DNA from: Escherichia coli
GTDB lineage: Bacteria; Pseudomonadota; Gammaproteobacteria; Enterobacterales; Enterobacteriaceae
NCBI RefSeq assembly: GCF_048403405.1
Contig: NZ_CP183129.1
Direction: 5' to 3' (one strand)
DNA: 64,000 bases
Both the position numbers and the translations under genes were made by a program. Below are positions 1,103-49,121 of this stretch, in pieces. How positions within the stretch are numbered: position 1 is the stretch's first letter; every line of letters begins with the position of its first letter. The notes under the pieces are model-generated. The model ran no database searches. It was given only the letters and a program-made list of their open reading frames with translations, and was not told where the DNA came from.

Positions 1103-1351
1103 ATGCGTATTGAGATCTGCATAGCCAAAGAGAAAATGACTAAAATGCCAAACGGTGCTGTGGATGCGTTAAAGGAAGAATTAACTCGACGCATCAGTAA
1201 GCGTTATGACGATGTAGAGGTGATCGTAAAAGCCACCAGCAACGATGGCCTTTCTGTTACGCGCACCGCCGATAAAGATTCAGCTAAAACTTTTGTTCAG
1301 GAAACTCTGAAAGATACCTGGGAGTCTGCTGACGAGTGGTTTGTTCACTAA
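1103..1351 (+). CDS. DinI-family DNA-damage-inducible protein (prophage-encoded)
   Basis: 82 aa, MRIEI.IAK...[15 protein letters not shown] resembles E. coli DinI; RBS gaggga; SOS boxes upstream. Confidence 0.85.
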
Positions 1352-2573: not shown

Positions 2574-3164
2574 ATGTCTCGAATTTTTGCTTACTGTCGG
2601 ATATCAACTCTGGATCAGACCACCGAAAATCAACGCCGGGAAATCGAAAGTGCAGGCTTTAAAATCAAACCTCAGCAAATAATCGAAGAACACATTAGCG
2701 GCTCAGCAGCAACCAGTGAGCGTCCTGGTTTTAACCGGTTGCTTGCTCGCCTGAAATGTGGTGATCAATTGATTGTGACAAAACTGGATCGCCTTGGTTG
2801 TAATGCAATGGATATCAGGAAAACAGTGGAACAACTGACCGAAACAGGTATCAGAGTGCATTGCTTAGCATTGGGGGGCATTGACCTGACCAGTCCAACA
2901 GGAAAAATGATGATGCAAGTAATTTCAGCAGTCGCTGAATTTGAACGAGACCTTTTACTTGAACGCACTCATTCCGGGATAGTAAGAGCCCGGGGCGCAG
3001 GGAAACGTTTTGGTCGACCACCTGTGTTAAATGAAGAACAGAAACAGGTGGTATTCGAACGAATTAAGTCAGGTGTAAGTATAAGTGCCATTGCCCGGGA
3101 ATTCAAAACCTCGCGGCAAACCATTTTAAGAGCCAAAGCAAAACTTCAGACACCTGACATATAA
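2574..3164 (+). CDS. serine recombinase (PinQ/PinR-like resolvase/invertase family)
   Basis: 196 aa; N-terminal YCRISTLDQ catalytic-serine motif; C-terminal HTH. Confidence 0.85.
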
Positions 3165-45507: not shown

Positions 45508-46127
45508 TGACCACATTTACCAATAAAGAACTGATTAAAGAAATCAAAGAACGAATCAGCAGCCTAGAGGTTCGAGACGATATTGAGCGCCGTGCTTATG
45601 AAATTGCTCTGGCATCGCTAGAAGAGGAGCCGGTGGCATGGCTGCATTCAGAAAATGGCTTAGGTATTCCGGCAATAACGAGGAGTAAAAACATTGCTGA
45701 CAGTTGGTTATCAAAGGGCTGGTATGTTCAGCCGCTATATATAGCCAAGCCAGTGCCGATGGTGCCAGATGCTCGTCCGTCTTTAAATAATGGCATAGTC
45801 GGCTTTGATGAAGGCTGGAACGCCTGCCGCGCCTCCATGCTTAATGGTGCCGAACCTGTAAGCCAGACTTATAAGTTGAACGAGCTGTCGGGCAACTCTC
45901 CGGTAACTCCGGATGGTTGGATAAGCTGTAGTGAGCGAATGCCGAACGATAAACAGTATGTTTGGTGTTGGGGTAAGTCTTACGGCTGGACTGAGTGCGA
46001 TACCTTCGAAGGGTATTACGATTGTTCGAGAAACAAATGGTGGGCAGTTACTGACAATGGGGAAGAACCGGCATCGAAAGTAACCCACTGGATGCCGCTA
46101 CCGGAGCCGCCGCAGGAGGTGAAGTAA
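45507..46127 (+). CDS. DUF551-domain protein (YfdT-like)
   Basis: C-terminal WISCSERMPNDKQYVWCW...THWMPLPEPP. Confidence 0.55.
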   Translation: MTTFTNKELIKEIKERISSLEVRDDIERRAYEIALASLEEEPVAWLHSENGLGIPAITRSKNIADSWLSKGWYVQPLYIAKPVPMVPDARPSLNNGIVGFDEGWNACRASMLNGAEPVSQTYKLNELSGNSPVTPDGWISCSERMPNDKQYVWCWGKSYGWTECDTFEGYYDCSRNKWWAVTDNGEEPASKVTHWMPLPEPPQEVK

Positions 46128-46321
46128 TGAACAACTTAATGACAACTAAACAAGTCGCCGATTTCTGTGGTGTTTCAGTATCGACAGTTCTTCGCTGGAA
46201 CAGCGTAAACAGGAGAACTGGCCAGAAATACAGGCCTGACTTTCCAGATCCTGATATTAAATCCTGCCCAAATAAATGGGCATCACACAAGATTTACAGA
46301 TTTGCGGGAGTGATTGATTAA
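46127..46321 (+). CDS. xis: AlpA/excisionase-like HTH protein
   Basis: 64 aa; MTTKQVADFCGVSVSTVLRW HTH; adjacent to the integrase module. Confidence 0.6.
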   Translation: MNNLMTTKQVADFCGVSVSTVLRWNSVNRRTGQKYRPDFPDPDIKSCPNKWASHKIYRFAGVID

Positions 46322-46597
46322 TATGTATTAGCTTAGATGTGAGCTGACACATCTATGATTAGATGCCAAACCTAATCTGAGCGTCCACTCTTTACCAAGA
46401 GCGGACGTTACCAATGACCATATGACATGAATCGATAAGATCAAAACATTATCGCCAAGAAATGTATTGATACAAATAAAATTGATTACCCCCTTACTCT
46501 TGTTGAAAAGTTAGTCGTAGAGTACCTATCGCAATGTAATCAGCTTTAATCATCTGAAAATTACTCCTTAAAAATTAGCTTTTATATACTGAACAAA

Positions 46598-47317
46598 TTA
46601 AATCTCTGTTTCTTTTCCTGTTCGGCTCAACCAATACTCCATTGTTTGAGTATGAATCTTTTCAGCGTATATTTTTTCAATTAATTTATCTCGTTTTTCT
46701 TTAATGACTTTACGCAGTGAATCATATAACATAAAAAAACGTTCATCATCTTCCTCATTATTACCGTAATTTATTTGATTGAGTTCTGAAAAAATATGAT
46801 AGCACCTTTTTTTCTTGGTCCCCGGCAATATTAAAACCAAGCCGCATTGATCATATTCAAATTCACCTTTATGGGCAGCAAAGTTATGTCTAACATTCAT
46901 AATAGAATCATGTAAATCTCTGTATTTTTCTGGCACATGCTTTCTCTGCAATGTGAATCGACGCCCTTTCGCCTCTGTAAAACACTTACCGTAAGTAACA
47001 ACTTTTGATATAAATAAAGACTTTAATATTAGATTCTTTTCTAAATCAGGATAAATAAAGTGTTGTTCTCTATTAATGTTATTACAAATGTTTTTTATTA
47101 TATTCTCCCAACCAATAACATTCCGAAGATCTTTATCCAGCAACTGTAAGGCCACATATTGTTCTACAAAGCGGCCTTTTAAAGGTATTCGTGGTAATAT
47201 TACACCTTTCTGCTTATAAACTCTTTCTATCGTATTATCTGGATATTGGATCTTCCTTATTTCTATTCCGTCTTCTTCTGATACCCTTACTAATGGTTCA
47301 TTTTTTAACTTTGACAT
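46598..47317 (-). CDS. hypothetical protein (239 aa) in an AT-rich moron between xis and int
   Basis: Visibly AT-rich relative to neighbours; own upstream intergenic region of 283 bp; R-x5-H motif at residues 143-149. Confidence 0.6.
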   Translation of the reverse strand: MSKLKNEPLVRVSEEDGIEIRKIQYPDNTIERVYKQKGVILPRIPLKGRFVEQYVALQLLDKDLRNVIGWENIIKNICNNINREQHFIYPDLEKNLILKSLFISKVVTYGKCFTEAKGRRFTLQRKHVPEKYRDLHDSIMNVRHNFAAHKGEFEYDQCGLVLILPGTKKKRCYHIFSELNQINYGNNEEDDERFFMLYDSLRKVIKEKRDKLIEKIYAEKIHTQTMEYWLSRTGKETEI

Positions 47318-47602
47318 GTTAACCCTCTTAAATAAAAAACTAACTTTATCCAGATAGTGTCCGTTAAGAAGTTTTCGTTACAACTAAGTTTCTAGGTAAA
47401 TCATGAATCAACCTATAGTATCAAAAACATTTGGTGGTAAACATCTGCATTTATCAAATAGCAGGAGCGATTTAGGGGCATAGGGATAGTGATGATATCT
47501 ATACCCGTGCCCTCTTATGTCAACACAATGGCGTAAACTTAACGCTCACATCTCGCTCAAAGTGTGCTAGGAGATTTGGTTATGTTCAGGTGATACAAAC
47601 CG

Positions 47603-48826
47603 TCAGTTTGAATCAGAGATAGTACAATTAACAATCGATTCAACCCTCTTCCACCATGCCAGGTAAGCTTTACGCTGTTCTTCTAGATAATCGCTCTTAT
47701 CATAAACTTGCCATACCCCTGGCAGCTTATGACCAAGCATAATTTCTGCGATATGAGGCGCAGTAAGATCAGAAAAATTTGTTCGTGCTGTCCGTCTCAA
47801 GTCATGAAGAGACCAATGAGGGAATTGATATCCTAAACGCCGCCACGCGTACTGCATTAAATTGTAAGGCAGCGACTGTAATGATGTCCTACCGACTGGC
47901 TCCCTGCTTCCTTCCTTAGTAAAAAGCATATCGGAACCGTTGTTCATAGAGATAACGTATTTTATAAGCTCTTCAACCGGTTCAATAATGGGCCGCTTTA
48001 GCGGTTCGCCTGTTATGTCCCCTGTCTTATGTCGTTCAGGTGGTACAGTCCATACCTTATTTATGAAATCAAAATCACCCACCCTAGCAGTAATTAGCTC
48101 CGAACTACGGCAACCAAAATGCAGTAATAGTTTAATGAAGGCCCTGTATTTGGGAACCATTCTAGAGCCATCGATCGCAGCATAAAGAATTTTAATTTCA
48201 TCGTGTGTCAGAAACCGTTTCTTCTGACCTTTACGGATATCCATATCTTTACCCGTGATATCCGACAGCGGGCGAGTTTCAATAAGCTTTCTCTTATACG
48301 CCCAGACATGGGCCTGCTTTGCGTTAATTAGCAATCGGTCTGCTATTGCTGGAGTCTTAGTGCTAAGAGGCTCCAGGACTTCTAACCAATCATGCAATGT
48401 AGCTGCATCGTGAGGGATATTCCCGATTTTAGAGAACAGGTGCAGCTCAAACGAGCGGAGTATCTGTTCAGAACTCTTTTTATTTTTTACACAATATGCT
48501 TCATACCAGGCACGGATCACAGACTCTACCGTCATGGCTTCAGTAGCTTTTCGTTTTTCAGCCTGCTTGACCAATCGTGGATTACGGTTTGACTCGAGTT
48601 CACCACGGAGACGGATAACTTCTTCTCTGGCCTCTTTTAATCCAGTTGCCGGGTAAGTTCCGATATCAAGACGCTCACCTTTCCCTGCCCATTGATAACG
48701 ATATTGGAACACTACGCGACCTTTCGGTGATACTCTGACAGACAGACCATCACGATCGGATTTAACCAAAACCTTATCACGTTCCTTTCCAACGACTGAA
48801 CGCAACCACGCATCAGACAGCGCCAT
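47603..48826 (-). CDS. int: tyrosine integrase (P4-type)
   Basis: 407 aa; catalytic R (GCRSSEL), H-x-x-R (HDLRRT) and C-terminal Y. Confidence 0.95.
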   Translation of the reverse strand: MALSDAWLRSVVGKERDKVLVKSDRDGLSVRVSPKGRVVFQYRYQWAGKGERLDIGTYPATGLKEAREEVIRLRGELESNRNPRLVKQAEKRKATEAMTVESVIRAWYEAYCVKNKKSSEQILRSFELHLFSKIGNIPHDAATLHDWLEVLEPLSTKTPAIADRLLINAKQAHVWAYKRKLIETRPLSDITGKDMDIRKGQKKRFLTHDEIKILYAAIDGSRMVPKYRAFIKLLLHFGCRSSELITARVGDFDFINKVWTVPPERHKTGDITGEPLKRPIIEPVEELIKYVISMNNGSDMLFTKEGSREPVGRTSLQSLPYNLMQYAWRRLGYQFPHWSLHDLRRTARTNFSDLTAPHIAEIMLGHKLPGVWQVYDKSDYLEEQRKAYLAWWKRVESIVNCTISDSN

Positions 48827-49055: not shown

Positions 49056-49121
49056 GGGGTGAGAAATAATGGCAAAAGTGCGGCGCTTCGCCACCTCTTG
49101 CAAATAAGGAGACAACGTCAT
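49056..49121 (-). pseudogene. prfC: orphaned original 5' end of prfC (first 22 codons, [22 protein letters not shown]), with its native upstream region to 49210
   Basis: Minus-strand ATG at 49119..49121; frame ends in phage DNA after about 24 codons. Confidence 0.7.
49057..49070. repeat. att core copy (integrase-proximal junction)
   Basis: Direct repeat of 822..835, 230 bp beyond the integrase start. Confidence 0.6.

Follow-up and report, generated by a model that had tools for sequence, protein, structure and literature searches.

The window analyzed here, a 64,000-nucleotide stretch of Escherichia coli contig NZ_CP183129.1 (RefSeq assembly GCF_048403405.1), contains a prophage of the lambdoid Glaedevirus type that is inserted between prfC and yjjG. 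Near its yjjG-proximal end lies an open reading frame for a 239-aa protein (46598–47317, minus strand). Upstream of this ORF and in the same orientation is a tyrosine integrase of 407 aa (47603–48826, minus strand), to the right of which come the prophage end and attachment region, beside yjjG, and then the host genes yjjG, rimI, holD, rsmC, and three tRNA-Leu genes. Convergent with the ORF, at 46127–46321 on the plus strand, a 64-aa helix-turn-helix protein (Pfam HTH_17, E = 2.9e-4; MerR, E = 2.7e-3) forms the left edge of the slot in which the ORF sits; its counterpart in a related prophage is annotated as a “helix-turn-helix domain-containing protein.” The initial annotation had placed the ORF between an excisionase and an integrase. 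The latter is indeed a tyrosine integrase, while the label of the former derives only from its position and the weak HTH_17 match, and the gene is called excisionase-like here.

Several other features of this prophage were recorded in passing. Near each prophage end lies a copy of GGGTGAGAAATAAT, an exact 14-nt direct repeat (822–835 and 49057–49070); the left copy is in the 5′ part of prfC and the right one between the integrase and yjjG, and RefSeq lists a 69-nt truncated pseudo-CDS beside the integrase. Repeat and pseudo-CDS together are consistent with an attachment core and with integration into the 5′ end of prfC. At the prfC-proximal end, two perfect LexA boxes (CTGT-N8-ACAG), 28 nt apart at 1044–1087, are found just upstream of an 82-aa DinI-like gene (1103–1351, plus strand), an arrangement that implies an SOS-regulated phage DinI. 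A 196-aa serine recombinase of the Pin/Hin invertase type (2574–3164, plus strand) lies beside the tail-fiber genes, as it does in phage 2H10, and is probably an inversion switch for tail-fiber host range.

The 239-aa ORF is a real gene under selection. It begins with ATG behind an AGAGGG Shine–Dalgarno-like sequence, its product is identical to the RefSeq “hypothetical protein” WP_000040220.1, and pairwise dN/dS values of 0.10–0.24 against homologs indicate purifying selection. One lambdoid copy (L022, 1510–2229), which has near-identical flanks, 65% protein identity and a dN/dS of ~0.9, is probably a frameshifted or decaying allele and was left out as evidence for selection. The GC content of the ORF is 0.315 (GC3 0.263), as against 0.445 in the integrase, 0.47–0.51 in the remaining prophage, and 0.50 in host DNA. 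The AT-richness remarked on initially is thus borne out, and this atypical composition marks the gene as foreign, i.e., as horizontally acquired cargo of the prophage.

Database searches placed the protein in a single profile family, PHROG 8440 (phrog_8440, E = 1.7e-144), of unknown function. None of the families in PADLOC-DB v2.0.0 matched it at E ≤ 1, PDB searches by sequence and by profile returned no match, and Pfam and NCBIfam gave no significant family for the protein, for 10 diverse relatives, or for the family consensus; on the same 10 relatives PADLOC produced two weak and inconsistent matches (LmuA, 1.7e-3; PDC-M66B, 4e-3). In a profile search of 5.8 billion proteins (alignment A2) and a further search with a divergent family member (P0144), all matches were without Pfam domains. 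Confident homology to a housekeeping or phage structural family, which would have spoken against the accessory-gene reading of the initial annotation, did not appear in the Pfam, NCBIfam, and PHROG scans.

The slot itself (window 46415–47595) was compared with eight prophages that have the same integrase (loci L032–L039). Backbone homology to these prophages stops at 46352–46414, after the excisionase-like gene and the hairpins that follow it, and resumes at 47595–47621, at the integrase stop codon. These sharp homology breakpoints delimit a variable cargo cassette of ~1.2 kb (46415–47595) that comprises the gene and both flanking spacers. Nine sampled same-integrase prophages hold eight different cargoes: the 239-aa gene, a dGTPase defense gene in O157:H7 NE122 (PADLOC, 8.2e-105), an 868-aa HNH protein in N137, and unannotated protein cargo in UTI89 (331 aa), 120899 (271 aa), SMN013SH2 (460 aa), APEC O78 (413 aa), and O145 RM9872 (two small ORFs). 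A 253-aa hypothetical protein of RefSeq in DETEC-S792 (L034, NZ_CP116067.1) was considered as a ninth alternative and rejected, as it is the same gene truncated by IS1: an IS1B lies near its 3′ end (at window 46637–46645), with a 9-bp target duplication and replacement of the last ~13 residues. Alternative, unrelated cargoes, a known defense gene among them, thus occur between the same backbone genes, and the int/xis slot is a compact hypervariable cargo hotspot. The int-proximal position that had been likened to that of morons and defense genes is, accordingly, one that elsewhere holds a dGTPase defense gene.

Across 5,426 complete E. coli genomes, the integrase is present in 699 (~13%), always beside yjjG, and the 1.3-kb gene region in 70; temperate phage 2H10 (Glaedevirus) has it as well, in the same int-adjacent position. 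This distribution bears on whether the protein could be a phage life-cycle factor, acting in integration/excision or in the control of lysogeny (e.g., as an RNase on int/xis transcripts, i.e., retroregulation, or on host RNAs at induction). Such a role would explain the recurrent position beside integrases: in lambdoid and P2-like phages alike the gene is directly downstream of and co-oriented with the integrase, whose stop codon it overlaps in the P2-like phages, and in the window it is convergent with the excisionase-like gene across a structured spacer. However, ~90% of the same-integrase prophages lack the gene and carry unrelated cargo, so it is dispensable for that backbone. Family members located behind umuDC, in a filamentous Vibrio phage, and on a conjugative element have no integrase close by, and the atypical GC content is that of foreign cargo. 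We consider a life-cycle function quite improbable.

The two spacers around the gene have different affiliations. From the integrase stop to the ORF start, a non-coding AT-rich region of 285 nt (47318–47602, minus strand; GC 0.375) forms part of the cassette; the gene does have the AT-rich upstream region first ascribed to it, with a length of 285 rather than 283 bases. About 155 nt of this spacer (47318–47474) stays with the gene, at 81% identity, in a umuDC-carrying Cronobacter-type phage (L018) whose backbone is unrelated to that of the window prophage. That this DNA travels with the gene suggests that the gene carries its own regulatory region and, judged from the sequence, 47318–47602 may be that region. 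No consensus sigma-70 promoter was called there on the minus strand. SOS control of the gene was considered and found unsupported, the region upstream being without a LexA box.

On the other side, where no consensus terminator was called for the gene, three consecutive stem-loops occupy the convergent intergenic region (46330–46412; MFE z −4.3 on the plus strand vs. shuffles, and −2.9 for the whole spacer on the minus strand). They begin ~185 nt past the ORF stop and directly abut the stop codon of the excisionase-like gene; lacking a U-tract and called by no terminator search, they are not canonical terminators. The stem-loops are conserved in prophages with other cargo, and their location outside the homology breakpoints assigns them to the conserved phage backbone. 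The hairpins that the initial annotation saw behind the gene are therefore real structures, while their place is on the xis side of the boundary and not within the gene's cassette. A 19-aa ORF, MIKADYIAIGTLRLTFQQE (46494–46553, minus strand), preceded by an AAGGAG Shine–Dalgarno sequence, starts 45 nt past the stop of the 239-aa gene. It was examined as a possible partner of the gene and rejected, because the lambdoid cassette alone contains it, and there only near-identical copies keep it.

Relatives of the protein are widespread. An exhaustive HMMER search of 1.84 billion representatives of 50%-identity clusters (E ≤ 1e-3) found them in 497 such clusters, nearly all of them single-domain proteins of 220–260 aa that align over their full length. 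Distant relatives (37–46% identity) reside on mobile elements of other types. Enterobacter, Yersinia, and Citrobacter have P2-like prophages in which the relative comes directly after int, overlapping its stop codon, and is the last gene before the tRNA attachment site; in another phage group it follows umuDC-like genes at the prophage end. Others lie in filamentous phages of Vibrio and Alcanivorax, and one has Schlafen-like and SNase genes as its neighbors on a conjugative element. In every context examined the family is solo and on a mobile element, and the lambdoid, P2-like, umuDC, filamentous, and conjugative contexts have no partner gene in common.

Two of the more distant contexts have features of their own. 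In a pair of IMG/VR contigs from umuDC-type phages (L020 and L023), the homolog is bracketed by tRNA-gene fragments, with one acceptor/T-arm sequence between umuC and the homolog and another after it; the homolog may therefore be part of a mini-element of its own, inserted in tandem at that tRNA site. The most distant homolog on a viral contig (30% identity; IMG/VR 2524614866_000004) comes after five co-oriented unannotated ORFs, one of which has the feel of a HEPN/AbiV-like sequence, and this stretch (L030, 1160–4915) may be a small defense island.

The family alignment gives meaning to a motif that says little in one protein. Residues 143–149 read RHNFAAH (codons at 46871–46891, minus strand), a putative HEPN Rx5H catalytic motif that was noticed in the initial annotation and rightly treated there as weak evidence by itself: 78% of shuffles of the 239-aa protein contain at least one Rx4–6H, so the significance of the motif comes only from its conservation in the family. 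In alignments of 118–141 diverse homologs, down to ~20% identity, Y109, H136, and R143 are invariant, D63, K111, F113, R119, A148, and G151 are at least 90% conserved, and H149 is conserved at ≥90–99%. R143 is followed by H (62%) or N in nearly every homolog, and R[H/N]xxxAH is almost invariant across the family. Conservation in homologs, without which the motif would have lost its interest, is thus evident (R143, 100%; H149, ~99%). The catalytic HEPN signature has been defined as Rx4–6H with a polar residue (N/D/H) after the arginine (Anantharaman et al., 2013, PMC3710099), and both elements, the conserved Rx4–6H and the polar residue, are present in the family.

An AlphaFold2 model of the protein, built with 22 homologs (pLDDT 87, pTM 0.77), predicts an N-terminal three-stranded beta meander (residues 9–36), long helices at residues 49–79, 92–111, 130–148, and 188–221, and a beta hairpin at 157–180. 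The modeled fold is a four-helix bundle with a small beta sheet made up of the N-terminus and the hairpin between helices 3 and 4. In this model the motif (143–149) forms the C-terminal end of helix 3 and reaches into the connector, the same position at which the HEPN literature places the active-site motif (PMC3710099). Foldseek searches of AFDB50 returned the family itself first and then proteins with HEPN names in UniProt: a “Cthe-2314-like HEPN domain-containing protein” (32% identity, 1e-17), an Apea-like HEPN protein (4.5e-11), and, as whole-length neighbors, HEPN AbiU2-like proteins (~1e-8, TM ~0.6). Nothing significant was found for the model in the PDB. The structure prediction and fold search proposed as a check at the outset have produced a confident bundle model and mixed support for a HEPN affiliation, with HEPN-named neighbors in AFDB50 and no significant one in the PDB. 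At the profile level, weak matches to PF18734 (HEPN_AbiU2) occur in 4 of 118 family members, the best with an i-E of 5.6e-3 and none at E ≤ 0.001.

It is likely, in our judgment, that the 239-aa protein belongs to the HEPN superfamily and, if it does, the family is likely an unnamed sister family of the AbiU2/Cthe_2314-like proteins. By analogy with catalytic HEPN proteins, it would then be a metal-independent RNase that works through R143 and H149. The HEPN likeness could also be superficial, the protein being a non-catalytic helical bundle (e.g., one that binds or inhibits a target, as an anti-defense factor or a regulator would) in which the Arg/His motif is structural or binds a ligand. 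We find this improbable: R143/H149 invariance, a polar residue after R143, and a motif located exactly where helix 3 ends are hallmarks of catalytic HEPN proteins, and the structural neighbors that bear HEPN family names match over the whole protein.

If the protein is a HEPN enzyme, it could still serve the mobile element and not act in defense, i.e., as a toxin for addiction/post-segregational killing or as a weapon between elements (e.g., against plasmids or satellites), held in check by an antitoxin that has escaped recognition (a small RNA or peptide, for instance, or a factor of the host). Persistent mobile elements of all kinds, a conjugative element and filamentous phages among them, carry the family, many HEPN proteins are toxin–antitoxin toxins (PMC3710099), an Alcanivorax relative lies near a Gp49/HTH (HigBA-like) pair, and in the window cassette the gene is followed by the 19-aa ORF with its Shine–Dalgarno sequence. 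However, no neighbor recurs from one context to the next: neither the 19-aa ORF nor the DNA downstream is present in the umuDC, P2-like, or filamentous settings, in the P2-like phages the gene is merely the last one after int, and no MNT nucleotidyltransferase antitoxin adjoins the gene in the lambdoid, P2-like, umuDC, filamentous, and conjugative contexts examined. A type III toxin–antitoxin arrangement with an RNA antitoxin was likewise judged unlikely, as there are no tandem repeats and no Rfam family. A toxin in the service of the element is, on this evidence, an unlikely reading.

We judge it probable, with modest confidence, that this mobile gene encodes a HEPN RNase which, as a single protein, guards the lysogen through abortive infection. 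The suggestion in the initial annotation of a candidate defense gene, possibly a HEPN RNase, is supported computationally by the cargo slot, the conserved motif, and the predicted position of that motif in the model. A machine-learning prediction points the same way: DefensePredictor (Science 2026, PMC13092281) lists WP_000040218.1 in its Table S10 as a “Predicted novel defense gene,” in a cluster whose representative, WP_000040220.1, is the RefSeq protein of this ORF. The cluster has a mean log-odds of 9.62 (vs. a stringent cutoff of 4) and no remote homology to known systems, and it is not among the units that were cloned and tested in that study (PMC13092281). Our literature search, which was incomplete in coverage and leaves room for an earlier test, found no experimental record of the gene and no mention of its accession.

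The mechanism we propose draws on HepS, ApeA, PrrC/RloC-type anticodon nucleases, and AbiU2-like proteins, by analogy with which RNase activity, an RNA target, an infection trigger, and a defense phenotype may be expected. The lysogen would produce the 239-aa protein in a resting, inactive form that would probably oligomerize, such that two Rx5H motifs form a composite site. When a competing phage infects, some component or effect of that infection, which the extra beta sheet might detect, would switch the protein on, and the activated protein would cut tRNA or mRNA without metal ions. Translation would then stop and the infection would be aborted, from which the lysogen population and its resident prophage would profit. 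A bolder version, which we regard as a long shot, is that the family represents a new HEPN branch whose composite beta sheet is a built-in sensor for a conserved component of phages or mobile elements, unlike the tail-tip trigger of HepS. It could then be a broad-range single-protein immune sensor-effector, borne by tailed prophages, filamentous phages, and conjugative elements, and possibly directed against rival mobile elements in general and not only against lytic phages.

Should the defense reading be true, a widespread family (~500 clusters at 50% identity, in Gammaproteobacteria and beyond) would join the few self-contained HEPN abortive-infection nucleases, and a compact int-proximal defense hotspot would be recognized in a prophage family that ~13% of complete E. 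coli genomes carry, where the other unknown genes of the slot could be mined likewise. A small protein that occurs alone and is apparently not toxic in its resting state would make a tractable subject for asking how infection is sensed by a HEPN RNase that has no partner. Its practical value is moderate, since solo HEPN defense is already established and the cluster already figures on a published list of predicted defense genes; the 239-aa gene is a good experimental candidate and no conceptual surprise.

Among known systems, the HepT/MntA type VII toxin–antitoxin pair (e.g., PDB 7ae2) differs in that the 239-aa protein is ~100 aa larger and has extra beta elements. Cthe_2314-like and ApeA-like HEPN proteins are represented among the HEPN-named AFDB neighbors, by the 32%-identical homolog and an Apea-like protein; neither the 239-aa protein nor its sampled relatives matched PF18730 or the PADLOC models for ApeA. 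ApeA is a validated single-gene defense system, and is said to have been presented as a defense gene by Gao et al. in 2020. It differs from the 239-aa protein in being larger, with a beta-rich N-terminal domain of ~300 aa (PMC3710099).

AbiU2-like HEPN proteins (PF18734; the AbiU locus of L. lactis) resemble the family in being stand-alone proteins of ~200–240 aa on mobile elements, and one of them, the product of HNPBCG_15845 (an integron cassette of V. mimicus), has a HEPN AbiU2 domain and confers on E. coli protection from both T4 and T7 (bioRxiv 10.64898/2026.03.17.712381). In contrast to these proteins, the 239-aa protein and 114 of 118 relatives have no PF18734 match even at E 0.1, and the family consensus has no match to it either. 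With nearly all members unmatched, the family is at best a sister of AbiU2 and not a member by Pfam criteria.

A close functional precedent is HepS (STM14_3211) of the Salmonella prophage Gifsy-1, the “HEPN Solo” anticodon nuclease, a stand-alone HEPN Abi protein without an antitoxin (Sargen et al., Nature 2026, PMC13043305). HepS is an inactive tetramer at rest that is activated by siphovirus tail-tip proteins and then cuts tRNA anticodon loops (PMC13043305). It belongs to a different family, with an Rx4H motif and no sequence match to the 239-aa protein. Nevertheless, HepS and the 239-aa protein are both small HEPN-type proteins carried singly, as accessory cargo, by lambdoid prophages, and neither comes with a gene for a partner or an antitoxin. 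HepS also offers a mechanistic template that runs from an inactive oligomer, through a phage structural protein as trigger, to tRNA cleavage. We thus view the window protein as the representative of a new and unnamed family whose function, by this analogy, would be of an already established kind, that of the solo prophage HEPN abortive-infection nucleases such as HepS.
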